Of a DNA stretch of 39,325 nucleotides, positions 16,632 to 33,540 are shown piece after piece. The notes beneath the pieces are model-generated. The model made no database searches, was not told the origin of the DNA, and saw only the letters and a list, made by a program, of their open reading frames with translations. Each line of letters opens with the position of its first letter. The first letter of the stretch is position 1. The position numbers and the translations under genes were made by a program. The DNA is from an uncultured Spirochaetales bacterium (GTDB taxonomy: Bacteria > UBP6 > UBA1177): positions 1 through 39,325 of the forward strand of contig CACZFE010000003.1 in assembly GCA_902780365.1 (NCBI GenBank). The letters are read 5' to 3'.

Positions 16632-19600
16632 GCAGCAAAACAGTTGAATTCCTGGTGGAAAGCGGTGAAATTGCCAAAGAAAATCTGAAAACAGTGACAG
16701 ATGAGATGCCGGGACGGTATGAAACCGTCGAAGAGCTTGCACGCGGCGGTTCGGGCAGGATACTTGTCGTTTTCGACAGGCATGTCGGCAGAAAAATCGC
16801 AATGAAGGAACTTCTTTCAGACCTCAACAAAACTTCGGCAAAATCTGATGATCCGCAGGAAACTGCGATAAGGAACCGCTTTCTGCGTGAGGCAAGAGTT
16901 ACAGGCGGACTGGAGCATCCGGCAATCGTTCCGGTTTACGAGATAGGCTGTCATGCCGACGGTTCTTTTTACTACACGATGCGCCTTGTCAAAGGAAAGA
17001 CCTTGCTCAGCGCGATAAAAAAATGCCACAGTGTGTTCGACAGGCTTGCCCTGCTTCCCCATTTCTACCACGTATGCAACGCTGTTGCATATGCCCACAG
17101 CAAAGGGGTCATAAACCGCGATCTCAAGCCTTCCAACGTTATGATAGGTGAATTCGGAGAAACGGTTGTACTTGACTGGGGCCTTGCTAAGATCAAAGAT
17201 TCCGAAGAGACGATTTTTGTGCGTCACGGAAGTGAAGAGGTCGGCAAAACGGTTATCGGCCAGGCAATAGGAACTCCTTCATATATGCCGCCGGAGCAGG
17301 CTGAGGGCAAGATCGGCGAAATAGACGAGATCTCAGACATCTATTCGCTCGGGGCGATGCTTTACCAGATCCTGACCGGCAGAACGCCATTTTCAGGCAG
17401 AACAGTCGATGAAATAATAAAAAAAGTGCTGACAGAAAAGGTGGAGAATGCTGCGAAAGTGGACAGTGATGTTCCGCCGGAACTTGCCGCGATCGCTGAA
17501 AAAGCACTTTCGAAGGATAAAAACGAGCGCTACGGCTCAGTCTCTGATTTTATCGATGATCTGTCGGCATACATGTCCGGAAGGAAAGTCGGGGTTTACC
17601 ACTATTCGCTTTTCGAGAGCATTAAATTCGCGGCATCAAGGCACAAAGCGGCTTTTATCTCCTCTCTGATTGTATTTTCGATAGTTTTGTTCGCCGCTTT
17701 CCAGATTACGCTGGCTCTCAACAGGGCAACTATCGCAAAACATGAAGCAGAGCACGGAAAAGTGACGGCAAACTACCGGACTGCCCAGGCTTTCAGCGAA
17801 AAATCAGACAGGCTTGACAGTGAGAAAAGTTATATAGCATCCAGGATCTATGCGGCTGCCGCGATGTATTACAACCCTTTAAACAAAAAGAGTCCTGAGT
17901 ACAGCGCCGACTTTGCAGCATCCTCAGGCGATTCGGAAGAGATTCTTTCAAAGGCGGCTTCAAAGTTCTACATAAGAAATTTCCACCGCGGAGCTGTCTT
18001 CGAGCGCGATGTCCGGACAGGGTGCAGAATCACTGCCGCTGTGCTTTCTCATGATGAGAACACTGTGGCTGCAGGATGCGAGAACGGCAGCGTTGTCATT
18101 TACAGTTTCCCTGAACTCTCGGAAATATATAAATTCGATTTGGAAAGCTCTGTTATGGGGATAGATTTTTCGGACGACGATAAAACTCTTTTTGTTTCAA
18201 CTGCCGGCGATGAAGATTTTATCGTCAATATTCAGGCTAAAACAGCTGAAACCTCTTTGGGAAGGACGTTTGACGGCAACAGGTCTGATTTTGACGGTAT
18301 CGCTGAAAAGTGGTATCAGAAAGAAAACGATAAAATCGTCTCGCTCTCTGTTTCTCCTGACGGAAAAATAATTCTTGCAGGAACCGAAAGCGGGAAAATA
18401 GCGGTTTTCTCAAAAGAGACAAAAGAGTTGCTGAATATCCTTTCGTTCAGAAGTTCGGCGATTTCGAATATAAATTTCCAGAAAGACGGAAATTACTTCG
18501 TGACCGCATCAAAAGAGATGAAGATCGTTGTCTGGGATGCAGCGGCGTTTGCTCCGCTTTTTGTTATAGACGGGCATGATTCAGCAATCCGCACTGTTTT
18601 CTTTGCAGGAACTGACCGCATTGTTTCGGCCGGAGAGAAAGGGCTTCTTCGTATTTGGAAAAGACACGGCAAAAAAGGAATAAAATCTTTCGATATAACT
18701 TCTTATGATATCGTGAAAGCCGCATTTATAAATGGTTTCGATGCAATTTTTGTGGTCGGCGGGAACAAAATTTCGATTGTATCAAAAAATGGAGAGATTT
18801 TGTTCGAGCACGAAGAGGATTTCAGGATTTCGGATGCCGATATTTCTGATGGCGGCCGTTATGTCGCCGTGGCGGAAGAAAGCGGCCGGGCAATAATTTA
18901 TGACAGGGAGAACGGAGGGGTTAAGGATTTTGAAGTCGGTTGCGCGATAGATTCGGTGCGCATTTCTCCGGATAAAAAATACATCGCGCTTGTCTGCGGA
19001 GAGGAAGCCCGCCTTATTTCCCTGGAAACTTCCGATATCAAAACATTCCAGTGCCTTCACAGTTCCAGATCTGGAGCTGCTTTCTCTCGTGACGGCTTGA
19101 AATTTGCCACGATATGCGGAGGAGCGGTAACTCTTCTTTCCGTCCCCGGTTTTTCGCTTTCAGGCGAGGTCAGGATCGAGGGAAGGGAGGCCGTCGGCCT
19201 TGAGTTTATGCCGGATTCGACCATTCTGGCAGGTTTCAGCAAAGGAATACTCAGCCATATCGACACTTTGGATAACTCAATTATGGATTTCAGCGGCAGA
19301 TTCGATCTGAAACATAGCATGGCAGTCTCTTCCGATGGAACTTTTGCGGCAACTCTTGCTCTGCATAACGGTGTCAGGATCTGGAATGTAAAGGAGCACA
19401 AGCTTCTACTTGCAATTTCCACTGAAAAGGATCCAGGGTGCCTGCTTTTTGCTCCTGACAAAAATGCTGTCGGCGTCTGCATCGGAGGTACTGTCAGATT
19501 TTATCCGCTTGACGCTCCGGAACTGGAACTGGCTCCGGCGGAACTGCTGCACAAAATGGAACTTGAAGCGGGAATGGAGCTCAAGGACTTCTATCTCGAG

Positions 19601-19636
19601 ACGCTCACGAGCGAAGACATCTCGCAGAGGAAGTGA
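16628..19636 (+). CDS. membrane-anchored Ser/Thr protein kinase with C-terminal WD40-like beta-propeller repeats
   Basis: Hanks kinase motifs are present: ARGGSGRI, IAMKEL, INRDLKPSN, DWGLAK, GTPSYMPPEQ, DIYSLGAMLYQILTGRTPF. One TM segment (AAFISSLIVFSIVLFAAFQITLAL) lies at about nt 17648-17719. About 630 aa follow with repeated G-x-V/I-x-I/V-W/Y/F units (GSVVIYSF, GKIAVFSK, KIVVWDA, LLRIWKR, GVRIWNV). Confidence 0.85.
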   Translation: MSSKTVEFLVESGEIAKENLKTVTDEMPGRYETVEELARGGSGRILVVFDRHVGRKIAMKELLSDLNKTSAKSDDPQETAIRNRFLREARVTGGLEHPAIVPVYEIGCHADGSFYYTMRLVKGKTLLSAIKKCHSVFDRLALLPHFYHVCNAVAYAHSKGVINRDLKPSNVMIGEFGETVVLDWGLAKIKDSEETIFVRHGSEEVGKTVIGQAIGTPSYMPPEQAEGKIGEIDEISDIYSLGAMLYQILTGRTPFSGRTVDEIIKKVLTEKVENAAKVDSDVPPELAAIAEKALSKDKNERYGSVSDFIDDLSAYMSGRKVGVYHYSLFESIKFAASRHKAAFISSLIVFSIVLFAAFQITLALNRATIAKHEAEHGKVTANYRTAQAFSEKSDRLDSEKSYIASRIYAAAAMYYNPLNKKSPEYSADFAASSGDSEEILSKAASKFYIRNFHRGAVFERDVRTGCRITAAVLSHDENTVAAGCENGSVVIYSFPELSEIYKFDLESSVMGIDFSDDDKTLFVSTAGDEDFIVNIQAKTAETSLGRTFDGNRSDFDGIAEKWYQKENDKIVSLSVSPDGKIILAGTESGKIAVFSKETKELLNILSFRSSAISNINFQKDGNYFVTASKEMKIVVWDAAAFAPLFVIDGHDSAIRTVFFAGTDRIVSAGEKGLLRIWKRHGKKGIKSFDITSYDIVKAAFINGFDAIFVVGGNKISIVSKNGEILFEHEEDFRISDADISDGGRYVAVAEESGRAIIYDRENGGVKDFEVGCAIDSVRISPDKKYIALVCGEEARLISLETSDIKTFQCLHSSRSGAAFSRDGLKFATICGGAVTLLSVPGFSLSGEVRIEGREAVGLEFMPDSTILAGFSKGILSHIDTLDNSIMDFSGRFDLKHSMAVSSDGTFAATLALHNGVRIWNVKEHKLLLAISTEKDPGCLLFAPDKNAVGVCIGGTVRFYPLDAPELELAPAELLHKMELEAGMELKDFYLETLTSEDISQRK

Positions 19637-21000: not shown

Positions 21001-21031
21001 TTTTTTATAAAAATTGCAATGGAGGTGGAGC

Positions 21032-22240
21032 ATGATCTACAGAAAAAAATATATGGAAAAAATACTTCCTTTTGTGGACACGCCGTTCGTGAAGATTTTT
21101 ACCGGCATCAGACGTTGCGGCAAATCGACAATCATGCAGATGCTTCGCGAGGCTTTGACTGAGCGCGGGATCAAAGCTGAGCAGATTCTTTTTTACAGGC
21201 TTGATTCGCTTGAATACGAGAACATGACAAACATTGAACTCTTCAACGAAATCAAGGCTCACCTCTGCAAAAACAGAAAAACGTACATTTTTCTTGATGA
21301 AATTCAGGAAGTTGAATCGTGGGAAAAGACTGTAAACTCTCTGATGAGCGGTTTTGACACCGATATTTATGTCACTGGCTCGAATTCGAGGATGATGTCT
21401 GACGAAATCTCGACTTATCTGACGGGAAGATACATCTCTTTCCGCATTTTTCCACTTACTTTTTCTGAATATCTCGATTTTAGGGAAGCATACACCGAAA
21501 AAGGGACTTTGAAAGAGGAATTCGCCCGTTTCATGCGTTTCGGCGGCTTTCCGGCGATACATCTGCGCAATTATTCGGAGGATGAGGCTTACACGATTGT
21601 CCGCGATATTTACAATTCCACTATTTTCACCGACATTGTGAAAAGAAACGAAATCCGCAAAGTCGACCAGCTTGAAAGGGTTGTTAAATACGCTTTTGAC
21701 AACGCGGGACGGATCTTTTCTGGGATGACGCTTTCAAAATATATGAAAAAACAGAACCGAACCATGGATCCCGAAACCGTTTACAGCTATCTGGAAAAGC
21801 TTGAAAAAGCCTATATTCTGCACCGATGCCAGCGCTATGACATAAAAGGAAAAGAGTTTCTTAAAACGCAGGAAAAATTCTATTTAGCCGACACTTCGCT
21901 GCGTTATTCCGTGCTCGGGTACAATTCTGACACGGTTTCTGCTATGATGGAAAACATCATTTATATCGAGCTTTTGTCTCGCGGCTATTCCGTTTATGTC
22001 GGAAAAATGGATTCTTTTGAAATTGATTTCGTCGCCATCAGACAGAACGAGAAACTTTACATTCAGGTCTGCCGCGAAATAAACACCGCCAAAACCGAAA
22101 CCCGGGAATACGAAAACCTTCATAAAATCAAAGACAACTATCCGAAATATGTAGTAAGAATGGACGATTTCGCCGACGGAAACAGCGAAGGAATCCGCAC
22201 AATGCACATTTCAGATTTTCTCCTGAGCAGTGAGTATTAA
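21032..22240 (+). CDS. AAA ATPase of the AAA_14 + DUF4143 type
   Basis: MIYRKKYMEKILPF..., Walker A GIRRCGKST, Walker B YIFLDEIQEV, and a C-terminal EIDFVAIRQNEKLYIQVC nuclease-fold-like segment typical of DUF4143 proteins. GGAGG lies 6 nt upstream of ATG 21032. Confidence 0.8.
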   Translation: MIYRKKYMEKILPFVDTPFVKIFTGIRRCGKSTIMQMLREALTERGIKAEQILFYRLDSLEYENMTNIELFNEIKAHLCKNRKTYIFLDEIQEVESWEKTVNSLMSGFDTDIYVTGSNSRMMSDEISTYLTGRYISFRIFPLTFSEYLDFREAYTEKGTLKEEFARFMRFGGFPAIHLRNYSEDEAYTIVRDIYNSTIFTDIVKRNEIRKVDQLERVVKYAFDNAGRIFSGMTLSKYMKKQNRTMDPETVYSYLEKLEKAYILHRCQRYDIKGKEFLKTQEKFYLADTSLRYSVLGYNSDTVSAMMENIIYIELLSRGYSVYVGKMDSFEIDFVAIRQNEKLYIQVCREINTAKTETREYENLHKIKDNYPKYVVRMDDFADGNSEGIRTMHISDFLLSSEY

Positions 22241-22275: not shown

Positions 22276-23361
22276 TTAATCCGGAACACACTCTTTGCCG
22301 TTCCAGAGCAAATCGTCTTTACAGTCGCAACGATATTTTGTCTCGCTTTCAGGGTAACAATCATTATCATATGCGTCAGGAATATCCCTGCACGGTTCGG
22401 AATTACACGGATCGTAGACACATTTTCCCTCAAACCAGAAATATCCGTCAAGACATCTTGTGCAGCGGAGACTTTTGATATCATCGGCATGTTCACTTCC
22501 GCAGACACTGTCTATCCCGCCATTGCTGAAATTTACCGCCAAAACACATAAAGCATCATCAGTACGTACAAATGAGTTTGACCATAATTCTTCTTTGTCG
22601 CCGAATTTGCTGTATTCGACTGTCTCGTTTTCTTCGCATGATTCACAGTTTTCAAGGTGACAGTCAAAATACTCACAGATAAATTCACAATCTCCGCCAG
22701 GCTGAGTGTTAGGACAGTTCTGGATCAAAGTCCTCAATTGATCAATATAAGGAGATTCCCAGTCGGACGATCCTCCTTCTGACAATTCCCAACACTTTTT
22801 TTGTTGCCAGTTGTCTGACATTTTTGACGACCACACAAGCCAAGTGGCAGAATCTTTGCATGGAGTGGCGCTTTCAGGGCTGCATTCAGGAAGTTCGGCA
22901 CATTTTTCGCCGTCAAAACTGTATCCGTTTTCGCAAATGCAGAGGAATTGTTCTTTTGATTCAGAAATACACTCTTTCAAATTGGTATCTCCGCATGGGT
23001 TCGGATCACACGGGGAAACACACTTCAGCTCTGTCTCATTCCAAAAATAGCCTTTTTCACATCCGCATTCGTATTCATCGTAGCTCAGCGAAGTGCACTC
23101 GCCTGTTGAATGAGCTATTTTGCACGATTTGCTGTCGCACGGATTTACGCATGCATCCCTTGTGTCCCAGTTCCAGAAATAATTTTCCTCGCATTTGCAG
23201 TAAGCATTAAAGAAACCCGGATTGCAAACTCCGGTAGAATGACTTACAGTCTCACATTGTTTAAGTTCGCAATCTGTTTTCCAGTCCCAATCATCAAAGA
23301 GTTTGCACGCTGGAAGTGAAAAAATCAAAAACAGTGCAAAAAGCAGAAATAGTTTTTTCAT
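22276..23361 (-). CDS. Cys-rich lipoprotein with EGF-like repeats and a DUF1566-like module
   Basis: Signal peptide plus lipobox MKKLFLLFALFLIFSLPAC. Repeated C-x-C-xxGYFW-x-C EGF-like units are present. A central SDWESPYIDQLRTLIQNCP motif is shared with the lipoproteins at 32365 and 38845. Confidence 0.75.
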   Translation of the reverse strand: MKKLFLLFALFLIFSLPACKLFDDWDWKTDCELKQCETVSHSTGVCNPGFFNAYCKCEENYFWNWDTRDACVNPCDSKSCKIAHSTGECTSLSYDEYECGCEKGYFWNETELKCVSPCDPNPCGDTNLKECISESKEQFLCICENGYSFDGEKCAELPECSPESATPCKDSATWLVWSSKMSDNWQQKKCWELSEGGSSDWESPYIDQLRTLIQNCPNTQPGGDCEFICEYFDCHLENCESCEENETVEYSKFGDKEELWSNSFVRTDDALCVLAVNFSNGGIDSVCGSEHADDIKSLRCTRCLDGYFWFEGKCVYDPCNSEPCRDIPDAYDNDCYPESETKYRCDCKDDLLWNGKECVPD

Positions 23362-23532
23362 TTTGCGGCCTCCGCATCAAAAAAACAAGTAATTTTAAGG
23401 AAAATCAAGAAAAAGGCAAGTTAAAGGGTGCAATGTCTGTTTTTTTCTTGCCGTTATCGGCAAAAAATTGCGTTTTTAAGGTAAATTTTGTAAAATTCTT
23501 GCCGATAGATTGTTTGGTTTTAAGAGGTGTTT

Positions 23533-24414
23533 ATGGAATATTTGTCTGTGGCTCAGTTCGCCGAAAAGTCCGGTTTAAGCGAAAGGACAGTCCGCAACTA
23601 CTGCGCGACCGGAAAGATGGAAGGTGCTTTTCTTGTCGGAAAAACGTGGAATATTCCCTCAGATGCGGTCCTGCCAAAGCGCATGAAAACAAAAATGACT
23701 CCGCTTTTGACCACACTACGTGAGCAGAAAGAATCCAAACTCAAAGGGGGAATTTACCACAGGACGCAGGTCGAACTGACATACAGCTCGAACCACATCG
23801 AAGGGAGCAGACTCACGAAAGATCAGACGCGGTTTATATTTGAGACCAACAAGCTCGGTTTCGCGTCAAAAAACACAAATGTCGATGATATTATTGAAAC
23901 CGTCAATCATTTCAGGTGTATAGACTTTGTTATCGACCACGCTCAAGAAAAAATCACAGAATCTCACATAAAGCAGCTTCACTCGATTTTGAAGGAATCG
24001 ACTTCGGATAGCCGCAAATCATGGTTTGCGGTCGGCGCATACAAACATTTTCCGAACGAAATCGGATTCGAGGAAACAACATTGCCTGAGGATGTCCACA
24101 GCCGTGTGAAAACGCTTCTTGCCGCTTACAACGCGCTGAAAGAGGTGAAATTTGACGATATTCTCGATTTTCATGTGCAGTTCGAGCGGATCCATCCGTT
24201 CCAGGACGGAAACGGCAGAGTAGGCAGACTTCTCATGTTCTGGCAGTGCCTGAAATCGGGAATAGTCCCGTTCATAATCACAGAAAATCTGCGTCTTTAT
24301 TATTACCGCGGGATCCAGAACTGGGGAAAACACAACGCATTCCTGCGCGACACCTGCCTTTCGGCGCAGGATGACTACAAAGCACTGCTCGATTATTTCA
24401 GGATCAAATATTGA
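23533..24414 (+). CDS. Fic-family protein (AMPylase-type) with N-terminal HTH
   Basis: Canonical Fic motif HPFQDGNGRVGR (nt 24193-24228). N-terminal MEYLSVAQFAEKSGLSERTVRNYCATGKM is a MerR/excisionase-like HTH. SNHIEG (nt 23788-23805) fits the (S/T)xxxE(G/N) inhibitory-helix pattern. AAGAGG lies 5 nt upstream of ATG 23533. Confidence 0.9.
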   Translation: MEYLSVAQFAEKSGLSERTVRNYCATGKMEGAFLVGKTWNIPSDAVLPKRMKTKMTPLLTTLREQKESKLKGGIYHRTQVELTYSSNHIEGSRLTKDQTRFIFETNKLGFASKNTNVDDIIETVNHFRCIDFVIDHAQEKITESHIKQLHSILKESTSDSRKSWFAVGAYKHFPNEIGFEETTLPEDVHSRVKTLLAAYNALKEVKFDDILDFHVQFERIHPFQDGNGRVGRLLMFWQCLKSGIVPFIITENLRLYYYRGIQNWGKHNAFLRDTCLSAQDDYKALLDYFRIKY

Positions 24415-24503: not shown

Positions 24504-25469
24504 ATGGCGAATTTAGAAAGAATTGCTTACATGAATCACAGGATCAAGACGCGCGGTTTTGTTACGCGGCAGGAAGTTGCGGAACGTTTTGAAGTCCACA
24601 TCGACACGGTCCTTCGGGACATCGGATATATGCGGGACTATCTTTCCGCGCCGATAAAATACAGCCGCGAGCTTGGCGGATATGTTTACGAATCGCCTTT
24701 CGGGATGCTTTTCGATTCATTCGACGACGCTGTTTTCTACTATATTTTCGTGAAGCAACTTAGTGATTCGATGAATCTGAACGGAATCCCTTATGTGCCT
24801 GTTATTTCTAAGGAAATTCTTTCAAAAATTTCAAGTTACATTCCTGCGGAATTTGAGGAGCTGCTTGATAAAATTTCTTACGATTCTTCCGATCTGGACA
24901 CCATGGAAGTGAGCAATTTCAGAAATATTCTGGAATCTATGCTGATGAAAGTGCGCCTTGAAATAAAGTATCTTGACTCAAAAGGCGACATAACTTCCAG
25001 AGCGATAGAACCTATAAAGCTCATAAATTATTCGGGGAAATGGTATCTTTTGGCTTACTGCCACAAGCGGCACGGACTTCGCGAGTTTCTTGTTTCCCGC
25101 TTTGTAGAAAGCCGCATCACTGAAGAACCTTTTTCCGAAATCTACACAAAATCAGAGATCGACAAATTCGTCGGAAGCACCTTCGGAATATACCCGTCGG
25201 AAAAATCGGAAACGGCGACTATCCGCATTTTTGAACCGGCATCCTATTTCTTCCTGAAGCAGAAATGGCACAAAGACCAGGTCACGAAAGAAACTGTTGT
25301 CGACGGGAAAAAATGTCTCGAAATCACCCTTCCGATCGGCGAATACCACAGTGAGATCATTGCCAGGGTAATGAGATATTCGCCTGAATGCGAGATCGTT
25401 TCTCCCCCTTCGCTTCGCAAAGAGTGGCTTGACCACATCAAAATGATCTACAACAAATACTGTAAATAA
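24504..25469 (+). CDS. WYL-domain transcriptional regulator (HTH-WYL-WCX architecture)
   Basis: N-terminal HTH (VTRQEVAERFEVHIDTVLRDIGYMRDYL). WYL domain (RAIEPIKLINYSGKWYLLAYCHKRHGLREFLVSRF). A possible promoter TTGCAA-17 nt-TAGATT lies at 24448-24476. Confidence 0.85.
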   Translation: MANLERIAYMNHRIKTRGFVTRQEVAERFEVHIDTVLRDIGYMRDYLSAPIKYSRELGGYVYESPFGMLFDSFDDAVFYYIFVKQLSDSMNLNGIPYVPVISKEILSKISSYIPAEFEELLDKISYDSSDLDTMEVSNFRNILESMLMKVRLEIKYLDSKGDITSRAIEPIKLINYSGKWYLLAYCHKRHGLREFLVSRFVESRITEEPFSEIYTKSEIDKFVGSTFGIYPSEKSETATIRIFEPASYFFLKQKWHKDQVTKETVVDGKKCLEITLPIGEYHSEIIARVMRYSPECEIVSPPSLRKEWLDHIKMIYNKYCK

Positions 25470-25576
25470 TTTTTTCACTACGACGCTATATGTCGTGGCG
25501 GACTTCTACAATCCGTTTTCAGGTGGGACAGAACACTGTTCCCGTGTTTTAAAAAATGCTGAAAATGGAGGCGGAC
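25438..25576 (+). repeat. leader repeat copy A (overlaps the last 10 codons of the WYL gene, ends at the LRR1 ATG)
   Basis: It shares a near-identical core of about 100 nt with copies B and C. The core contains the inverted repeat CTACGAC-N7-GTCGTGG (25478-25498), the hairpin GGGACAG-aaca-CTGTTCCC (25525-25543) followed by GTGTTTT, and GGAGG (25567-25571). Confidence 0.85.
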
Positions 25577-26266
25577 ATGACGATTTTGGATGAAAAAATG
25601 GCAAAAGAACTTTTAAACATTGGAAGAAACCATGTGGTTATACCTGATTTTGTGACAGAAATCGGAGAAAATGCATTTGAAGACTGCGAAGAAATGACTT
25701 CGGTGGTTATTCCGAACTCAGTTGAGAAAATCGGAGAACAAGCATTTTGCGGTTGCATCGAATTGCAATCACTGGTTATTCCTGCCTCCGTAACAGAAAT
25801 CGGCGAAAGAGCATTTCTCTGTTGCGCCCAGCTGAAATCAGTAGTTATTCCCGATTCCGTGACAGAAATCGGCGCATATGCTTTTCACTGTTGCTTTGAA
25901 CTGACTTCGATCACCGTTGACAAAAACAATCCGAGATACGACTCCCGCGGAGACTGCAACGCAATAATCGAAACAGCCACAAACACTTTAATCAAAGGCT
26001 GTTCAAGCACGATAATTCCTGATACAGTGACAACTATCGGTCAAAGTGCCTTTAAAAACTGCGCCGGACTTACATCCATGGTAATTCCAAATTCAGTTAC
26101 AAAGATAGAAGATTACGCATTTTGCTCCTGTCAGGATCTAATATCCATAACGATACCCGATTCTGTAACACAATTCGGAGAATGTGCCTTTCACGGTTGC
26201 CCCAAAATATCGGAAGAAAGCAAAAAACGACTTGAAGAACTCGGATATGATTTTGATGAGGAGTAA
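25577..26266 (+). CDS. leucine-rich repeat protein, BspA/LRR_5 type, no signal peptide (LRR1)
   Basis: About 23-aa repeats of the form VVIPxSVTxIGxxAFxxCxxLxS, plus the NPRYDSRGDCNAIIE segment typical of BspA-like LRR proteins. The protein starts MTILDEKMAKELL with no hydrophobic leader. ATG 25577 lies 5 nt after GGAGG. Confidence 0.85.
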   Translation: MTILDEKMAKELLNIGRNHVVIPDFVTEIGENAFEDCEEMTSVVIPNSVEKIGEQAFCGCIELQSLVIPASVTEIGERAFLCCAQLKSVVIPDSVTEIGAYAFHCCFELTSITVDKNNPRYDSRGDCNAIIETATNTLIKGCSSTIIPDTVTTIGQSAFKNCAGLTSMVIPNSVTKIEDYAFCSCQDLISITIPDSVTQFGECAFHGCPKISEESKKRLEELGYDFDEE

Positions 26267-26294
26267 GCTGCTGAAATTTTTAAAATAAAAGTTA

Positions 26295-26322
26295 TTGGAA
26301 ATAGTTTTTTGTGTAATATAAT
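26295..26322 (+). promoter_or_regulatory. sigma70-like promoter for the DUF262/DUF1524 gene
   Basis: TTGGAA (26295-26300), a 16-nt spacer, then TATAAT (26317-26322), lying 89 nt upstream of ATG 26411. No experimental support. Confidence 0.45.
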
Positions 26323-26410
26323 GGCGGGATTTTTTAGAGGGAGAAAAAGATGAGCGAAGAACCTAGAATTTTTTTTGGTAAGTTTACTCATAATTAAGGA
26401 GGAAAACAAA

Positions 26411-28255
26411 ATGATTATTTTGACTGAAGCGCATAGTATTGCTGAGATATTTTCAAACGAGGCAAGTAAAAACCGTTTTTACACTATCCCCAAATATCAA
26501 AGAGCTTACACTTGGGGACAAAAGGAGTGGGATCTCCTTTTTGATGATATAATCACAAATGATAACGGATATTTTTTAGGTTCCTTTATCTGTATCAGCA
26601 GAGATAATGCCGGTATGGCATCATTTACTACATTGGAAGTGATTGACGGGCAACAAAGACTAACAACAATGTCGCTCCTTTTAGCGGCATTATATAAGAA
26701 ATTATTACAGCTCAAAAACAGAATGACAGATGAACAAATCTCTGATTTTATTGACTTAAAAAAACGCTTAGTCAAAGAAAAAGACAAAATTCCGACCCCT
26801 GTTTTGACTCTGCAAAATCAGAACCAGAATTGCGATGATTACTTCTGCATTCTGTGCAATGAGTTGAATCTGCTGAAAGATAAACCTAAAATTCAGTACT
26901 ACGGCAATCGAAAAATTTACTCTGCTTATCGTCATTTTATTTCTAGAATAGATGCAGAAGTTGCCGAGCGGCAAAAAGAAGATCCTGAACTTGATTCCAT
27001 TGATACTTACTTTGGATTTGTAAAAAAATTCTGTTCTGCCGTTATGGTTGCCATTGAAGTCGGCAACAACAAAGATGCCTATATGCTTTTTGAATCGTTA
27101 AACAATAGAGGAATCCCCCTTTCCGCAATGGATCTCATTAAAAATTACATGATCGCCAAAGCAGAGAAGTCTGGAAAAATCGACGAATGCCATGAACAAT
27201 GGTTGAGAATCATTGATAATTTGACGGATGATGTCAATATCCAGGAACGTTTTTTCCGTCAGTATTACAATGCATTCAGAGACGAACTGAAGGGACCAAC
27301 TTCTGCGAAAGAAGAGAATGGCAAGTATCGTTTAGGTGCAATCGCAACAAGAACTACACTTTTGGATTTGTACGAAAAGATGATTGATGGTGGGTTGGAA
27401 TCATTTCTAAACAATCTTGAAAAAGAATCTGAAAACTATTCGATTTTAATAAACAATGATGATGCAACTGATAAAAAAGTCAAAAACGCCTTGTTGAACT
27501 TGGAGCGAATTCAGGGCACTCCATCATATATTTCATTACTCTATATTCTTTCAAAAAAGGAAGAACTTGAAATAACCAATGATGTTTTCATAAAAATTAT
27601 TAATTTTCTTACAAAATTCTTCGTTCGACGCAATTTGACAGATATACCGGCTACGAACAAACTGACCAAAATTTTCATGGAATTAAATACTTCATTAAAG
27701 TCAAAGAGAGGAAATGAGGTTTATGAGGAAATCAAAAGAGTTCTAATATCGAAAAGTGCAATAGACTCTGAATTTGAAGAGAAACTCAAAGGTCCTGTTT
27801 ACGACGAAAATGCAGATGTTACCAGATTTTTACTTTGCTTCTACGAAGAAAATTTCAACACCAGAGAACATATTGTCGATCTTTGGTCTCGGGAAAACAA
27901 AAAATATATATGGACTATTGAACACATTTTTCCTGAAGGTGCAAATATACCCGAATATTGGGTAGACATGATTGCTGGTGGAGATTATGACAAAGCAAAA
28001 AAAATCCAAAACGACTATGTTCACACCTTAGGCAACCTAACCATTACGGGATACAACTCCAATTTGGGAAACAAAGCCTTTGAGGAGAAAAAAAATCGTC
28101 AAAAAGACGGGAAGGATATCGGTTATAAAAACGGTCTAAAACTTAATGAAGATGTTGTTTCCCAAGAAAAATGGACTATTGACAACATAACCGCCAGAAC
28201 CGGTAAACTTGTAAAGGAATTTAAGAAGCTTTTTGACTTAAACAACGATAACTAA
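26411..28255 (+). CDS. DUF262 + DUF1524 (GmrSD-like) type IV modification-dependent restriction endonuclease
   Basis: N-terminal DUF262/ParB-like motifs are IPKYQRAYTWGQKEWDLLFDDI and DGQQRLTT. C-terminal His-Me finger DUF1524 motifs are WTIEHIFPEG, HTLGNLTITGYNSNLGNKAF. ATG 26411 is preceded by AAGGAGG. Confidence 0.88.
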   Translation: MIILTEAHSIAEIFSNEASKNRFYTIPKYQRAYTWGQKEWDLLFDDIITNDNGYFLGSFICISRDNAGMASFTTLEVIDGQQRLTTMSLLLAALYKKLLQLKNRMTDEQISDFIDLKKRLVKEKDKIPTPVLTLQNQNQNCDDYFCILCNELNLLKDKPKIQYYGNRKIYSAYRHFISRIDAEVAERQKEDPELDSIDTYFGFVKKFCSAVMVAIEVGNNKDAYMLFESLNNRGIPLSAMDLIKNYMIAKAEKSGKIDECHEQWLRIIDNLTDDVNIQERFFRQYYNAFRDELKGPTSAKEENGKYRLGAIATRTTLLDLYEKMIDGGLESFLNNLEKESENYSILINNDDATDKKVKNALLNLERIQGTPSYISLLYILSKKEELEITNDVFIKIINFLTKFFVRRNLTDIPATNKLTKIFMELNTSLKSKRGNEVYEEIKRVLISKSAIDSEFEEKLKGPVYDENADVTRFLLCFYEENFNTREHIVDLWSRENKKYIWTIEHIFPEGANIPEYWVDMIAGGDYDKAKKIQNDYVHTLGNLTITGYNSNLGNKAFEEKKNRQKDGKDIGYKNGLKLNEDVVSQEKWTIDNITARTGKLVKEFKKLFDLNNDN

Positions 28256-28295
28256 AACATACTCCGAAGATCCCCCCAAAAATCCCCAAAAACCT

Positions 28296-28440
28296 CATTA
28301 AAGTTATTGAAATTTCTGCACATAAACCAAAAAATTTTTCACTACGACGCTATATGTCGTAGCGGACTTTTACAATCCGTTTTCAGGTGGGACAGAACAC
28401 AGTTCCCGTGTTTTTTTTAATGATGAAAATGGAGGCGGAC
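28296..28440 (+). repeat. leader repeat copy B (ends at the LRR2 ATG)
   Basis: The same core as copy A. Inverted repeat CTACGAC-N7-GTCGTAG (28342-28362), hairpin region from 28389 followed by GTGTTTTTTTT, and GGAGG (28431-28435). The 5' part (28296-28325) is a degraded homologue of the WYL gene 3' end. Confidence 0.85.
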
Positions 28441-29127
28441 ATGACGATTTTGGATGAAAAAACGGCAAAAGAACTTTTAAACAATGGAGGAAGCCATGTG
28501 GTTATACCTGATTTTGTGACAGAAATCGGAGAAAATGCGTTTGAAGACTGCGAAGAAATGACTTCGGTGGTTATTCCGAATTCAGTTAGAAAAATCGGTA
28601 AAGGTGCATTCCGTTGGTGCGACCACCTGATTTCTGTAGTTATTCCGAATTCAGTTGAGAAAATCGAAGATTTCGCATTTATCAATTGTGCCCAGCTGAA
28701 ATCAGTAATCATTCCGGATTCCGTGACAGAAATCGGCGAAAATGTTTTTCACTGTTGCTTCGAACTGACTTCGATCACCGTTGACAAAAACAATCCGAGA
28801 TACGATTCGCGCGGAGACTGCAACGCAATAATCGAAACAGCCACAAACACTTTGATCAAAGGCTGTTCAAGCACGATAATTCCTGATACCGTGACAACTA
28901 TCGGTAAAAATGCCTTGGAAAACTGCGACATGACATCCGTGGTCATTCCGAATTCAGTTACAAAGATAGAAGATTACGCATTTTGCTGCTGTCAGGATCT
29001 GATATCCATAGTTATCCCCGATTCCGTAACACAAATCGGAAACGCTGTCTTTTGCGGTTGCCCCAAAATATCGGAAAAAAGCAAAAAACGGCTTAAAGAA
29101 CTCGGATATGATTTTGATGGGGATTAG
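28441..29127 (+). CDS. leucine-rich repeat protein, BspA/LRR_5 type, no signal peptide (LRR2, paralogue of LRR1)
   Basis: Nearly identical to LRR1 at both ends (MTILDEK.AKELLN...VVIPDFVTEIGENAFEDCEEMTSVVIPNSV and ...ELTSITVDKNNPRYDSRGDCNAIIETATNTLIKGCSSTIIPDTVTTIG...). It diverges in the second and third repeats. ATG 28441 lies 5 nt after GGAGG. Confidence 0.85.
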   Translation: MTILDEKTAKELLNNGGSHVVIPDFVTEIGENAFEDCEEMTSVVIPNSVRKIGKGAFRWCDHLISVVIPNSVEKIEDFAFINCAQLKSVIIPDSVTEIGENVFHCCFELTSITVDKNNPRYDSRGDCNAIIETATNTLIKGCSSTIIPDTVTTIGKNALENCDMTSVVIPNSVTKIEDYAFCCCQDLISIVIPDSVTQIGNAVFCGCPKISEKSKKRLKELGYDFDGD

Positions 29128-29203
29128 AAATTAAAAAGTCGATTTTAATCCGTTCACAGCTATAATTTGTCAGTTTTTTGATAAATCGACATTTATATCG
29201 GAG

Positions 29204-30889
29204 ATGCCAATGACTGATGCTAACTATTTAATACCATTGAAATTTTTAGAGGAATATGGTGGGAAGCCATATAAAGTTCCTGATAGAGATAAAATGAAAA
29301 AAGCAGGACAAGATGCAACTGGTGAATTGAAAAAAATAGTGAAACTTTGCGATGAAAAATTTCACCTGTGTCAAAGTGGACAAATACGATGGTTGACAAC
29401 TAACGGTCAGAAAATAAAAAGTTATTTGTGGGTTCAGCTTAAATATAAAGATAAAAAGGACGATCCTGTGAGCATTTCTATTTTTGTTGAAAAATCTCCG
29501 AACACATCAAAACCCAGATATCGTTTTTGTCTGGACCTTAAAGATAATGCTATCACAAAAAAAGATCTTGAAAAATTTCACCGTCATCTGGAGATAAAAA
29601 AACCTGATGATCTGGAATATTTTAGTGCGGGAGATGGAACAATACTGTCCCAAAGTCGGGAAGAACTACAGGAAGAAATCAAGAAAGACTCTAATCTAAA
29701 AGTACAAATTGGCAGAGTTGTCGAGGACAAAAATGAATTGACGAACGAAAATATTGAAAAAATAATGCTCGAATTAATACCATTTTATAAGCATGTAACC
29801 GGCAAAGATATTTCTGAAGATAACCAAAAAGACGGAGGTGAAAATATGAAAGATAACTTTGGCAAAAATATGATTCTTTACGGCCCTCCTGGAACCGGAA
29901 AAACATATAACACGGCTATTTATGCGGTTGCGATTTGTTGTCCTGAGCTATCTTTCGAAAAATGGAAAGAAAATTATGAAGAAGTTATGAAGCGTTACAA
30001 AGAACTTAAAAATCAAGGCAGAATTGCTTTCACAACTTTTCATCAGTCTTACGGATATGAGGAATTCATAGAGGGAATAAAACCTGTTACGAAAAGTGAT
30101 CAAACCGGCGATATCAAATACGAAATCAAGCCTGGAATATTCAAAGAATTCTGTGAGAAAGCCGGAAAAGACAAGGACAATAATTATGTTTTCATTATTG
30201 ATGAAATAAACCGAGGAAATATCTCGAAAATTTTTGGTGAATTGATCACTCTTATTGAAGACACCAAAAGAGAAGGAAGAACTGAAGAAATGTACGCGAA
30301 GCTTCCCTACTCCCAAAAAGACTTTAGTGTTCCGAATAATGTTTATATTATCGGAACAATGAATACAGCCGACCGTTCTATCGCTCTTATGGATACAGCA
30401 CTTCGCCGTCGTTTTCAGTTCATTGAAATGATGCCCAATTACGAACTCCTTGAAGGGAAAAAAATTACAAAAGATGGAAAAGAGATTGATCTTAAAAAAA
30501 TGCTCGAAACCATAAACAATCGCATTGAATGCTTATATGACAGAGAACACACTATCGGACACGCTTTATTTATGGGGCTTACAGAAAAATCCGATATTAA
30601 AGACTTGCAGAAGATTTTTGAAAAATCCTTGATTCCGCTTTTGCAGGAATATTTCTACGAAGATTATCAAAAAATTCAGTTTGTTCTTGGTCATAAATTC
30701 ATCGAAGAAACTAAAAACACAGATGTTTTTAAAGGGAATGTCGATATAGATCTCCCAGAAACAAGGTATGAATTGAACAAAAAGGCTCTTAATGATATAG
30801 AAAGCTATATCGAAATATACGAGGAAATACTCAAACAGAAACCGAAAAACCCAAAGATACAAGTGACAATAAATGAAAGAACTTCTTGA
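29204..30889 (+). CDS. mcrB: McrB-like AAA+ GTPase subunit of a type IV restriction system, with an unassigned N-terminal domain
   Basis: Walker A LYGPPGTGKT (nt 29882-29905), FIIDEINRGNISKIFGELITLIE and IIGTMNTADRSIALMDTALRRRF are McrB/AAA_5 signatures. I could not assign residues 1 to about 205. ATG 29210 (GGAG 6 nt upstream) is an alternative start. Confidence 0.85.
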   Translation: MPMTDANYLIPLKFLEEYGGKPYKVPDRDKMKKAGQDATGELKKIVKLCDEKFHLCQSGQIRWLTTNGQKIKSYLWVQLKYKDKKDDPVSISIFVEKSPNTSKPRYRFCLDLKDNAITKKDLEKFHRHLEIKKPDDLEYFSAGDGTILSQSREELQEEIKKDSNLKVQIGRVVEDKNELTNENIEKIMLELIPFYKHVTGKDISEDNQKDGGENMKDNFGKNMILYGPPGTGKTYNTAIYAVAICCPELSFEKWKENYEEVMKRYKELKNQGRIAFTTFHQSYGYEEFIEGIKPVTKSDQTGDIKYEIKPGIFKEFCEKAGKDKDNNYVFIIDEINRGNISKIFGELITLIEDTKREGRTEEMYAKLPYSQKDFSVPNNVYIIGTMNTADRSIALMDTALRRRFQFIEMMPNYELLEGKKITKDGKEIDLKKMLETINNRIECLYDREHTIGHALFMGLTEKSDIKDLQKIFEKSLIPLLQEYFYEDYQKIQFVLGHKFIEETKNTDVFKGNVDIDLPETRYELNKKALNDIESYIEIYEEILKQKPKNPKIQVTINERTS

Positions 30890-32177
30890 AGTAAGGGAGT
30901 TTGACTCAATAGTATGCGGAAGTGTCCGCGAAAACAGTAGCAATTGCAAGCCGTTAGATAAAGTGCAATTCGACGAGCTTCTTAAATTTATCCGTGAATT
31001 TAGCAGTGACGAAGCAAACAGTGATGCTTTGGAATTTATGAGAATCGGCTATAAGCGCAATATCGGAGATTTCATAAACATCAGAAATTATGTCGGGCTG
31101 ATTCAACTGAGAAACGGATTCCAAGTGCAGATTCTTCCTAAAATCGATTTTGGGAAAGATGACCAAGATAATTCTCAGACAAAGAAAGTATTTCTGAAAA
31201 TGCTCAGGAGCTTGAAGAATTTTCCTTGCAAGGCTTTCAATGACGCAAACTTGAAAGTAGACAAGATGAACCTTTACGAGATATTCATAAATATGTATCT
31301 CCAAGAAGTTCGTCAGTTGGTAAAAAGAGGAATAAAATCAGACTATGTAACTCAGGAAGACAATATTTCGCACTACAAAGGAAAACTTCTTGTAAACCAG
31401 CATATACAGATGAATTTTGCCCACAAAGAGCGTTTTTATGTCGCGTTCGATGAATTTCATCCTAACCGACCAGAAAACCGTCTTGTCAAAGCTACACTTA
31501 AAAAACTGCTCAAATTAACCGCAAGCACAGAAAACTCAAAAGAAATCAGACAGTTGTTGTCAGCGTTTGAAATGGTAGAGTCATCAGTAAATTATGAAAA
31601 AGATTTTTCGAAAGTCATCATAGACAGAAATACCGATGACTACAAAATGCTGATGCAATGGTCAAAAGTGTTTTTGATGAACAAAAGTTTCAGCACTTTT
31701 TCCGGCAGCAGCAATTCAAGTGCTCTGCTTTTTCCGATGGAACGTGTTTATGAAAGCTATGTTGCACAGCATATAAAAAAGATCTTCACATCTGACGGAT
31801 GGGAAGTATCTACTCAGGATAAAGGATGTTATTTATTCACGGAACCAAAACGATTTGCCTTAATACCGGATATTGTCCTGGAAAAAGATAAGCGTACTGT
31901 GATAATGGACACCAAGTGGAAAAGCCTTGTTGATGATGAGAGTAAAAATTATGGAATATCGCAAAATGACATGTATCAGATGTACGCATATTCAAAAAAG
32001 TATAAAGCCAAAGAAGTTTGGTTGCTCTATCCGATGAACGAAGCAATGCGTAATCACTCATCAATTTCATTTGAAAGCGATGAAAAAGATGAAAAAACTC
32101 TAGTCAGCTTACATTTTGTCGAGGTTGACGAGATAGAAAAGAGCCTTGGGGAACTTAAAAATAAATTAGCTCATTGA
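30873..32177 (+). CDS. mcrC: McrC-like PD-(D/E)xK nuclease subunit
   Basis: It overlaps the mcrB-like stop by 17 nt. The C-terminal IPDIVLEKDKRTVIMDTKWK (about nt 31869-31916) is the McrC D...D-x-K nuclease motif. Size (434 aa) and position are as in McrBC operons. Confidence 0.8.
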   Translation: MKELLEVREFDSIVCGSVRENSSNCKPLDKVQFDELLKFIREFSSDEANSDALEFMRIGYKRNIGDFINIRNYVGLIQLRNGFQVQILPKIDFGKDDQDNSQTKKVFLKMLRSLKNFPCKAFNDANLKVDKMNLYEIFINMYLQEVRQLVKRGIKSDYVTQEDNISHYKGKLLVNQHIQMNFAHKERFYVAFDEFHPNRPENRLVKATLKKLLKLTASTENSKEIRQLLSAFEMVESSVNYEKDFSKVIIDRNTDDYKMLMQWSKVFLMNKSFSTFSGSSNSSALLFPMERVYESYVAQHIKKIFTSDGWEVSTQDKGCYLFTEPKRFALIPDIVLEKDKRTVIMDTKWKSLVDDESKNYGISQNDMYQMYAYSKKYKAKEVWLLYPMNEAMRNHSSISFESDEKDEKTLVSLHFVEVDEIEKSLGELKNKLAH

Positions 32178-32215
32178 GGATAAATGACGTCAAGTGGTTA
32201 CAAATTGTAACCGGT

Positions 32216-32364
32216 TCAAAATGATCTACAAAAATTTCTGCAAATAAACCTCAAAAAATCTTTTACTACGACGCTATATGTCGTAGCGGGCTTCTACAAT
32301 CCGTTTTCAGTTGGGACAGGACACTGTTCCCGTGTTTTCAATGATGAAAATGGAGGAAAAAAAG
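32216..32364 (+). repeat. leader repeat copy C (ends at the lipoprotein ATG)
   Basis: It starts with tcaaaatgatctaca (32216-32230), identical to 25438-25452 within the WYL gene. Then come a WYL-tail-like ...ttctgcaaaTAA, the inverted repeat CTACGAC-N7-GTCGTAG (32266-32286), the hairpin GGGACAG-gaca-CTGTTCCC plus GTGTTTT, and GGAGG (32352-32356). Confidence 0.85.
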
Positions 32365-33540
32365 ATGAAAAAAATTCTTGTTATTTCGGCTGTTTTTGCA
32401 ACGGTGTTTCTGATCGTTTCATGCGGCGGAAGCACACAAAACAAGAGCGAAGCAAGTGGCAACGGCGAAAAGCCTGATTCTGACGAGCAGGACTCCGAGG
32501 CAGACGATTCAGCGGAATGTAAAAGCGGCCAATTCAAATGCGCCGATTCAGAATCCCTTTACTGCAACAGCTTCGGCTCGTGGGTATTCGATGCGCGTTG
32601 TGAAAACGGCTGTGATCCTGCAACAGGAAAATGCAAAACCGATTCAAATGATAATGATATCGCCGCCGATACTGAGAATGATAATGACAGCGATTTTGAA
32701 AATAACGATACCTCTGACTCCGGCGATGATAATGATTTTGACAACAGCGACACCGCTGATTCCGGCAATGACAGCGATATTGAAAGCAGTGATAATGACC
32801 ACGAAATTCCTGACAATTCCGGCTGCACAGACGGCAAATACAAATGTATTGACTGGGCTTCATGGGTCTGCAATGATTCACATTGGAACTTTAAAGAAAC
32901 TTGCGAATACGGATGTGATCCGGCAACAGGAAAGTGCAAATCTTCAGAATGCATTGACGGAAAATACGAATGTCGTACCGATTATTATTCTAAAGGTCAT
33001 TCTTATTACTGCGACAACGGTCTTTGGGAACACGATCTGTCATGTGAAAACGGCTGTGATTCTGCTACCGGCAAATGCAAAGATATGTGCTATGAAATAG
33101 ATAATAAAACATGGTCTTATTCCAGATCATCAATGACTTGGGAAGCGGCCAAAGAATTTTGCGATAATATGGTTAACTGCGGATATTCAGACTGGCATCT
33201 GCCGACAATCAGTGAACTTAGAACCCTGATTCAAAACTGTCCGGCTACAGAAACTGGCGGAGAATGCGGAGTCTCCGATCAGTGTTTATCATCTAACGAA
33301 TGCTATTATATACATAATGATGGTGACAATAGTTTTTCAACCATCTGTGGTCTTGGTTGTTCTGATTTTTTTAATAGCGGAAAATACAGTAAATTCGGAG
33401 ACAATGATCGTTTTTGGTCATCTTCGCTTCAAGATGATACCGATTCCATCCAAGTATGGGTAGTATATTTTGCCATGGGAATGATACATAGCACTAGTTC
33501 TAATGATTATACACTCCATTCTGTTAGATGCGTGAGATAA
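32365..33540 (+). CDS. lipoprotein with three Cys-knot-like modules, an acidic D/N/S linker and a C-terminal DUF1566 domain
   Basis: MKKILVISAVFATVFLIVSC gives a signal peptide plus lipobox starting exactly at the ATG that follows GGAGG. The module C..G.(F/Y)(K/E)C....C......W......CE.GCD.ATGKCK occurs three times. The linker spans nt 32638-32823. The DUF1566-type segment is CGYSDWHLPTISELRTLIQNCP...RFWSSS...VRCVR. Confidence 0.8.
   Translation: MKKILVISAVFATVFLIVSCGGSTQNKSEASGNGEKPDSDEQDSEADDSAECKSGQFKCADSESLYCNSFGSWVFDARCENGCDPATGKCKTDSNDNDIAADTENDNDSDFENNDTSDSGDDNDFDNSDTADSGNDSDIESSDNDHEIPDNSGCTDGKYKCIDWASWVCNDSHWNFKETCEYGCDPATGKCKSSECIDGKYECRTDYYSKGHSYYCDNGLWEHDLSCENGCDSATGKCKDMCYEIDNKTWSYSRSSMTWEAAKEFCDNMVNCGYSDWHLPTISELRTLIQNCPATETGGECGVSDQCLSSNECYYIHNDGDNSFSTICGLGCSDFFNSGKYSKFGDNDRFWSSSLQDDTDSIQVWVVYFAMGMIHSTSSNDYTLHSVRCVR

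Follow-up and report, generated by a model that had tools for sequence, protein, structure and literature searches.

The 39,325-nt stretch of contig CACZFE010000003.1 analysed here (the window; uncultured Spirochaetales bacterium, assembly GCA_902780365.1) contains, between positions 24504 and 33540, a WYL-domain regulator gene followed by two genes for cytoplasmic leucine-rich repeat (LRR) proteins, each of which lies behind a copy of the same leader element and in front of a different type IV restriction system. On balance, this region is probably a WYL-controlled array of defence cassettes at a chromosomal hot spot, in which a resident platform carries exchangeable type IV restriction cargo. 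Its core consists of six open reading frames (ORFs), all on the + strand: the WYL gene (24504-25469), LRR1 (25577-26266), a GmrSD gene (26411-28255), LRR2 (28441-29127), a McrB-like gene (29204-30889) and a McrC gene (30873-32177). These genes and their coordinates, proposed in a first-pass annotation, were borne out by an ORF check and by Pfam domain calls, as were the description of the locus as a WYL-headed defence locus and the placing of LRR2 between two defence systems, with GmrSD before it and McrBC (29204-32177) after it. In the scheme that we favour, each cassette would be a transcription unit built on a repeated platform, composed of the leader, an LRR gene as the first cistron and an AT-rich spacer with its own Shine-Dalgarno sequence (SD), behind which swappable nuclease cargo is placed, here GmrSD and the McrBC pair. 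A third leader would drive a surface lipoprotein gene, and the WYL protein would act at the leader palindromes, as BrxR does at its R-boxes. The LRR protein, if active in defence, would have a generic part, sensing or binding a phage factor or modulating the WYL switch.

The leader is conserved over ~110 nt and is found three times in the window, always on the + strand (25464-25576, 28328-28440 and 32252-32364). The shared leader of the first-pass annotation is therefore real, but it is shorter than the ~140 nt given there and has three copies instead of two. It is built, in order, of an imperfect palindrome with ~10-nt arms and a 5-nt spacer (CACTACGACG-CTATA-TGTCGTAGCG), a TACAAT box, a small hairpin with a T-run and the motif GGAGG, 5-8 nt upstream of the ATG. 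In copy 1 these elements occupy 25477-25501, 25507-25512, 25525-25550 and 25567-25571, respectively; the palindromes of copies 2 and 3 are at 28341-28365 and 32265-32289, and their SDs at 28431-28435 and 32352-32356 (copy 2 belongs to repeat families D4 and D6, copy 3 to D4 and D7). The 25-nt palindromic core occurs three times in the window, against none expected by chance, and solely at the three leaders. A direct repeat of 300 nt (89% identity) corresponds to the leader plus the 5' end of the LRR gene, and a second one of 194 nt (88% identity) to the LRR 3' end. Across 54 distinct copies from related rumen contigs, a leader core of ~60 nt is nearly invariant, the TACAAT box reading TATAAT in three of them. 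The leader is not confined to LRR genes: it also heads genes for Lcl_C, FtsK-like, Bro-N and small membrane proteins. Copy 3 in the window has no LRR gene behind it and heads the gene of an Lcl_C (DUF1566) lipoprotein with an IVSC lipobox (32365-33540, + strand; Lcl_C E-value 1.5e-14), the homology extending through the SD. This surface lipoprotein, which has Cys-rich repeats and an Asp/Ser-rich linker, is under the same control element as the restriction cassettes.

The arrangement recurs in a set of ~40 related contigs, which was gathered from close LRR homologues, leader-pattern scans of genomes and metagenomes, and a look-up of identical GmrSD proteins; individual loci are given below by their handles. 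All related contigs come from ruminant gut samples, and the leader is carried by 13 genome stretches and 16 metagenome stretches, all from rumen-type samples, with source labels that include 'bacterium UBP6_UBA1177' and 'uncultured Spirochaetales bacterium RUG11946'. In their flanks, many of these contigs share 92-97% identity with the window, and the gene order of L053 is identical to that of the window. Each locus has one to five leaders, the last of which usually heads Lcl_C; this unit closes nearly every related locus. LRRs that are more distant (61-67% identity), at other chromosomal places, retain the set of LRR, nuclease, Lcl_C and WYL genes together with the leader core. The unit of leader, signal-less LRR and nuclease, first noticed in the window, is thus found again both in the related contigs and in other chromosomal contexts.

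The gene behind the LRR changes from locus to locus. Besides McrBC, it may be a GmrSD of 614, 563 or 583 aa (a further one is partial in L037), an FtsK-like gene with a GmrSD of 570 aa, one of several GIY-YIG types, a PD-(D/E)XK_4 nuclease, an FtsK-like gene with an HNH gene, or an FtsK-like fragment with Bro-N; at least ten different nuclease cargos were found in this position. Leaders with neither an LRR gene nor Lcl_C behind them head a small membrane protein, an FtsK-like gene or Bro-N, or are followed by nothing. The GmrSD protein of the window is identical on 20 contigs, and an LRR gene is upstream in all nine places where the upstream gene is visible. An FtsK/SpoIIIE-like protein of 260-300 aa is a recurrent cassette component (L001 12612-13394, CACYHH 7866-8771, L007 2402-3226), its gene either standing directly behind a leader or having the LRR gene on one side and an HNH or GmrSD gene on the other; the protein may belong to effectors composed of two genes, one for an ATPase and one for a nuclease. 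A leader-headed gene for a membrane protein of 148-161 aa is present in L010 (2750-3860) and L036 (473-1012), with only a remnant in L025 (3163-3300). Its neighbour is a truncated WYL fragment in L010 and an intact WYL gene in L025; the L036 stretch shows no WYL gene. All three loci have a different genomic position, near PGM or FeoAB.

The boundaries of the exchanged segments and the scars left around them are visible at many points. Homology between loci stops at the start codon of the effector, not at the LRR stop codon, and the spacers between the two genes fall into four types, S1-S4, each common to unrelated effectors; with type S1 the similarity extends into the coding sequence, a GmrSD and a PD-(D/E)XK gene having the first codons ATGTGCGAA in common. 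A scar of the WYL 3' end is found before leader 3 (32216-32247, 88% identical to 25438-25469), and a short one resembling the same 3' end before leader 2 (28310-28334). Between LRR types A and B the ends are homogenised (dS ~0.1) and the core is old and diverged (dS 0.8-1.6), and the dS of GmrSD is ~0 between genomes whose WYL genes differ by a dS of 0.31. L056 contains a tandem duplicate of the leader-LRR-GmrSD unit, and in L010 the WYL gene is internally deleted. In six contigs the FtsK-like first gene is reduced to a mini-ORF, MKDAVKRNS followed by a stop codon, made of its fused start and end, which leaves an 'empty' leader (L014 at about 4360, L023, L033, L038, CAJOFY 6328 and L007 5015). 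The WYL scars, the shared spacers, the homogenised LRR ends, the L056 duplicate, the L010 deletion and the FtsK-like remnants indicate that the arrays probably grow, shrink and swap cargo by homologous recombination among the repeated leader, LRR and spacer sequences. The units were probably once each headed by a WYL gene, redundant copies of which were later lost. As judged from these sequences, the nuclease cargo, which is exchanged between loci, would be horizontally acquired, and the platform of leader, LRR and spacer resident. In L056 (1-9845), which has five leaders in 9.8 kb, LRR-PD-(D/E)XK, Bro-N and Lcl_C units follow the tandem duplicate.

Both cargos of the window have the make-up of type IV restriction systems, a modification-dependent class that attacks modified phage DNA (the GmrSD enzyme would be predicted to cleave DNA with, for example, glucosyl-hmC), and the DUF262/DUF1524 nuclease and McrB/McrC assignments made at first sight are upheld by domains and motifs. 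The first, putatively imported, cargo is a GmrSD enzyme (26411-28255, + strand; DUF262+DUF1524) with both domains above their cut-offs (GmrSD_N 1.2e-36, GmrSD_C 5.2e-16; PADLOC Orf5/HEC-06), the motif DGQQR at aa 79, EHIFP at aa 504 in the His-Me finger domain, and a GC content of 0.352. The second, likewise putatively imported, begins with a McrB-like AAA+ GTPase (29204-30889, + strand; AAA_5 1.9e-17, 64 bits), which carries the motifs GPPGTGKT, DEINR and NTAD and matches the NCBIfam McrB model in its motor domain only (153.5 bits, below the equivalog cut-off of 637). Its residues 1-220 (29204-29860) match no Pfam or NCBIfam domain, and these N-terminal ~220 aa presumably form a new DNA-reader module. 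The McrC nuclease subunit (30873-32177, + strand; PF10117 3.9e-96, 322 bits; NCBIfam McrC 117.9 bits) is encoded by a gene that overlaps the McrB gene by 17 nt. In L024 the McrB-like orthologue is 78% identical to that of the window and its McrC 94%.

The spacer between LRR1 and GmrSD (26267-26410, + strand, GC 0.285) is of type S2 and contains a sigma-70-like site at 26295-26322 (TTGGAA-16-TATAAT) and a mini-ORF of 15 codons at 26350-26397, MSEEPRIFFGKFTHN followed by a stop codon. The mini-ORF has the appearance of a remnant of a previous effector, because in L018 the same combination of spacer, SD and ATGAG introduces an unrelated GIY-YIG gene. The spacer between LRR2 and McrB (29128-29203, + strand, GC 0.276) is of type S3 and recurs before McrBC in L024 and before a GmrSD-like gene in L037.

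LRR1 (25577-26266, + strand, 229 aa, type A) and LRR2 (28441-29127, + strand, 228 aa, type B) are BspA-type LRR proteins, 81% identical to each other, with Pfam LRR_5 E-values of 2.4e-50 and 5.3e-47 (scores of 170 and 159 bits), which agrees with their description as paralogous LRR_5 proteins. Both begin with MTILDEK and end in an acidic tail, LGYDFDEE in LRR1 and LGYDFDGD in LRR2. Export signals were sought by inspection and no hydrophobic N-terminal stretch was found, the segment MTILDEKMAKELLN being polar and modelled as a helix; the signal-less character and the acidic tails claimed earlier thus held at both ends of the proteins. The AlphaFold model of LRR1 (pLDDT 94.8) is a BspA-type solenoid with helical caps at both termini, and Foldseek relates it to LRR_5 proteins of gut bacteria (4h09, 2e-11; also 4gt6) and to TpLRR (6mlx, 4e-09), so that the profile and structure searches proposed with the first-pass annotation, once run, returned LRR_5 repeats and a BspA-like solenoid fold. 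The proteins consist of repeats alone, with no fused NTPase domain in the Pfam search or the AlphaFold model, and no family of PADLOC-DB v2 matched LRR1 or LRR2. The earlier statement that no LRR+GmrSD or LRR+McrBC system has been described is in keeping with PADLOC and with the searchable literature, where none was found.

The LRR genes are under weak purifying selection (dN/dS 0.49 for type A and 0.37 for type B), and ~20 copies contain neither a frameshift nor a premature stop, repeats being lost in frame only. Replacements cluster at the two residues that follow the IG/IE motif of each repeat. An insert motif, NPxYDSRxxCNAIIE, is also present in many gut-bacterial homologues. Large or exported homologues that were sampled are in ordinary gene contexts, as are the signal-peptide controls P0038 and P0058. 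Three distant signal-less homologues (P0039, P0016 and P0020) are surrounded by many genes for defence, toxin-antitoxin systems or mobile elements, in one case with a WYL-WCX gene among them. The proximity of signal-less homologues to defence genes is suggestive, these five loci being too few for a claim of enrichment. LRR_5 as a whole was rejected as a defence-linked family, the plasmid homologues inspected being large and in ordinary contexts. A phage origin of the LRR was also rejected: viral contigs had no close relative, and the matches in phage collections were distant and unannotated. In an unrelated lineage, locus L045 (238-7194, GCA_019973135.1) has two signal-less LRR_5 genes in a block that opens with a distant WYL-WCX gene and also contains RNase_T, KilA-N, YhcG and DUF3987 genes, and the related L046 has a PD-(D/E)XK_4 gene; the L045 block hints that the link between WYL and LRR_5 may extend more widely.

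Wherever the gene downstream of an LRR gene is visible, it has the same orientation and encodes a nuclease or an FtsK-like protein (20 of 20). The first-pass annotation suggested that each LRR may be a sensor, specificity or regulatory partner of the adjacent nuclease; the sensor or specificity role fared poorly. Type B LRRs, 88-95% identical to one another, front McrBC, two GmrSD types, GIY-YIG, PD-(D/E)XK, FtsK-like plus HNH and FtsK-like plus Bro-N genes, at least six unrelated effectors. Furthermore, three independent LRR deletions with different breakpoints were found in three metagenomes (L029 2925-3240, L034 860-1040 and L035 2785-2960); they leave the first LRR codons and an intact GmrSD or GIY-YIG gene directly behind the leader. 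In L029 the GmrSD is 99.5% identical and sits, without an LRR, on a diverged spacer, and because this spacer has since diverged the LRR-less state was not fleeting. The GC content of the LRR genes (0.41) matches that of the resident WYL (0.44) and Lcl_C (0.42) genes, against 0.34-0.37 for the nucleases; the leader is not specific to LRR genes; and recombination at leaders would place an LRR before each nuclease also without functional coupling. The best reading of these sequences is that the LRR would be a constant accessory, not matched to its nuclease and dispensable for keeping it. That it contributes to defence at all is somewhat doubtful.

The WYL protein (24504-25469, + strand) scores 58.6 bits against the WYL model (cut-off 21.8) and matches the PADLOC WYL family at 7.8e-33 over residues 4-304. 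It has the domain order HTH-WYL-WCX and thus the layout of BrxR and CapW, the HTH_11 (20.3 bits against a cut-off of 25), WCX (21.0 against 23.9) and HTH_DeoR matches all being just below their cut-offs, and it weakly matches PafBC and the WYL proteins 7tb5 and 7qfz in the PDB. WYL regulators of the BrxR/CapW type often head bacterial defence islands. Across related loci the WYL protein is 91-99% identical (dN/dS 0.08), and it is conserved jointly with the leader core even where LRR identity drops to 61-67%. The R-boxes of BrxR have 11-nt arms and a 5-nt spacer, and two of them, R-BOX1 and R-BOX2, are reported for the pEFER island (PMC9122601). The geometry of the leader palindrome resembles that of an R-box, which makes it a putative WYL operator. 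Most likely, the WYL protein would bind the palindrome in every leader and set the expression of all units, from a promoter that we infer to be within the leader and that would also serve for co-transcription of LRR and nuclease.

Several points weigh against the reading of the region as a WYL-controlled array of platform and cargo. When the gap between the Fic and WYL genes was searched, no palindrome was found upstream of the WYL gene, unlike in the autoregulated brxR, and in L001, L017 and L018 the WYL gene comes after Lcl_C, not before the first leader. The position of the leader promoter is a guess. The palindrome is invariant, and sequence alone cannot tell a DNA operator from an RNA hairpin; the leader possibly acts as RNA, with folding z-scores of -4 to -5 for several variants of the part behind its core. 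The related contigs are phylogenetically close, and the counts obtained from them are counts of non-independent events. As for the LRR, in none of 20 cases does it stand directly before the next leader, loci without cargo such as L014 and L006 are also without an LRR, and at least ten cargos sit exactly behind it, which is hard to explain without a selective advantage; the LRR may matter more than a constant accessory would.

The last of these points bear on two opposite alternatives, each of which we regard as possible and somewhat unlikely. The LRR could be a true constant subunit of an undescribed, WYL-controlled modular family, 'LRR plus swappable nuclease', which would sense or trap a phage factor (for example an anti-restriction protein) in a generic way or co-regulate the WYL switch; such a role would explain why every imported nuclease is directly behind an LRR. 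Conversely, the LRR may be a resident framework gene with no defence role, copied together with the cargo by unequal crossover at the leaders. The GC content shared with resident genes, the occurrence of one LRR type before at least six unrelated effectors, the three deletions with the nuclease kept, the homogenised ends of the two types, the tandem unit of L056 and the WYL scars before internal leaders all fit the latter, as do the lack of an LRR model in PADLOC and the deletion of the FtsK-like first gene in the same way. What speaks against the LRR being only framework is that every LRR whose downstream gene is visible has an effector-like gene behind it and the no-cargo loci have no LRR, that at least ten cargos occupy a single slot, that ~20 copies are intact with a dN/dS below 1, and that the module persists in other chromosomal contexts at 61-67% LRR identity.

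A further alternative, which we consider unlikely, concerns the leader, which could act mainly as RNA, as a 5'-UTR attenuator, a riboswitch-like element or a processing site controlling read-through or translation. Whole-leader RNA folds have z-scores of -2.5 to -3.0 relative to shuffled sequences, most copies have a hairpin and T-run before the SD, and the hairpin varies in sequence between copies with its stem kept. The region 3' of the leader core can fold as RNA helices, several variants reaching z-scores of -4 to -5, and some of these pair an invariant UUUUCAG with a downstream CUGAAAA-like stretch. However, the commonest hairpin variant is no more stable than shuffled sequences (z +0.3), the outer helix is not retained in Lcl_C-type leaders, and an Rfam scan of the whole window matched only a tRNA, so the leader fits no described RNA family. 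Moreover, the best-conserved part is a palindrome of perfect geometry, free of compensatory changes, with the layout of an R-box and located beside a WYL gene. A candidate long-range helix of CCGUUUUCAG with CUGAAAAUGG was rejected, being inconsistently kept among leader copies.

It is improbable that the LRR is a sensor, specificity or regulatory partner of its particular adjacent nuclease. Such pairing would account for the strict same-strand adjacency, with gaps of 76-144 nt that contain no terminator-like site, for the association of type A with GmrSD-family cargo in five of six cases, and for the clustering of variable residues after the IG/IE motif of each repeat. It is at odds with the variety of effectors behind type B, from McrBC, GmrSD, GIY-YIG and PD-(D/E)XK to the two FtsK-like combinations, and with the persistence of the L029 GmrSD without an LRR; GmrSD and McrBC also function without an LRR-like partner in other organisms. 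Still less probable is an inhibitor or antitoxin that restrains the adjacent nuclease until infection, in the manner of the LRR ribonuclease inhibitor: LRR solenoids do inhibit nucleases in eukaryotes and the LRR gene would be transcribed first, but one LRR type would need to inhibit unrelated nuclease folds, and the three natural LRR deletions keep intact nuclease ORFs, on which ground a toxin-antitoxin reading of the pair was rejected. An integron-like array with the leader as the site of a site-specific recombinase is barely credible: the cassette boundaries are sharp and the repeated element has a hairpin, but no recombinase, integrase or transposase domain was found by domain searches in the window or related loci, the breakpoints vary, and the repeat unit is a leader plus gene (~700 nt of coding sequence, with WYL scars), not an attC site, so that integron and transposon models were dropped.

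The first-pass annotation was right about the six genes of the island and probably too narrow at its left edge. The defence-like genes probably start upstream of the WYL gene, at 21014, and the island is probably larger than the stretch delimited there, because an AAA_14/DUF4143 gene matches PADLOC PDC-S01 and a Fic gene PDC-S04. The former, a candidate defence gene for an ATPase at the left edge (21014-22240, + strand), has Pfam matches to AAA_14 (2.1e-35) and DUF4143 (2.6e-17) and a PDC-S01 E-value of 2.9e-152, and it is syntenic in L002 and JAEESW. The latter encodes an HTH-Fic protein directly upstream of the WYL gene (23527-24414, + strand; Pfam Fic 5.4e-16, PDC-S04 1.7e-104, dN/dS 0.06). 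Between them, on the minus strand, is a second EGF-like/Lcl_C lipoprotein gene (22276-23361), and just upstream of the island, after a RecC-like gene, is a gene for a Ser/Thr kinase-WD40 protein of 1002 aa (16628-19636). The rest of the window is core chromosome, with nusG, rplA, rplJ, rpoB, rpoC, recC-like, plsX and rpmF. A repeat search of the window gave no inverted repeats marking an invertible or phase-variable segment.

Should the LRR proteins take part in defence, no stand-alone cytoplasmic LRR component would have preceded them in bacterial restriction or defence, and they would add to the few repeat-type sensors that are not joined to their effector. Without such a role, too, the array would be a natural portable regulatory platform with one leader and probably one WYL reader, in which type IV restriction cargo is installed and exchanged through repeated use of the leader and with no recombinase. 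The leader sequence is a handle for harvesting more cargo genes from rumen metagenomes.

The repeat type and fold of the LRR proteins are those of BspA-type LRR_5 proteins (4h09, 4gt6, TpLRR 6mlx and PcpA 4cp6), which are usually regarded as exported adhesins. The window proteins differ in being short (229 aa), without signal peptide or anchor, with conserved helical caps and an acidic tail, and in their location in a defence locus. LRR domains are ligand sensors in eukaryotic NLR immunity; in NLR-like, Avs and bNACHT sensors the repeat sensor is fused to a STAND NTPase and an effector, whereas here the LRR consists of repeats only. The restriction enzymes share domains and catalytic motifs with stand-alone GmrSD/BrxU/SspE and McrBC systems, and the gene overlap between McrB and McrC is a feature of classical operons too. 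Unlike stand-alone systems, each is behind a conserved LRR gene and spacer, and, in contrast to stand-alone McrBC, the N-terminal 220 aa of the McrB-like protein contain no recognised domain.

At the level of the array, tandem modules that start with a conserved stretch of homology and exchange cargo at a sharply defined point, which here is the effector start codon, recall CDI/Rhs orphan modules and integron arrays. The window has neither an integrase nor a toxin-immunity pair, and its conserved stretch, made up of a regulatory leader and a gene in its own right, does not form the 5' portion of the cargo ORF. Lamassu, CBASS and Avs are modular families that combine a constant component with swappable effectors, and the window resembles them in having one conserved gene followed by many alternative nuclease effectors. 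It differs from them in that its effectors are complete, self-sufficient restriction enzymes and in that neither an NTPase nor a signalling domain is encoded by the constant gene, which can be lost without loss of the effector. A further comparison is with the pEFER island of E. fergusonii, which combines BREX, the GmrSD-family enzyme BrxU and BrxR: in both cases an HTH-WYL-WCX regulator lies inside an island with a GmrSD-type enzyme, and imperfect inverted repeats with a 5-nt spacer are present at more than one promoter region, as reported for pEFER (PMC9122601). The WYL protein of the window is only distantly related to the solved BrxR/CapW structures, and, in contrast to pEFER and to CapW-controlled CBASS, its locus contains neither BREX nor CBASS. 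The candidate operator is placed not upstream of the WYL gene but inside a ~110-nt leader before every cassette, with an LRR gene as the first cistron.

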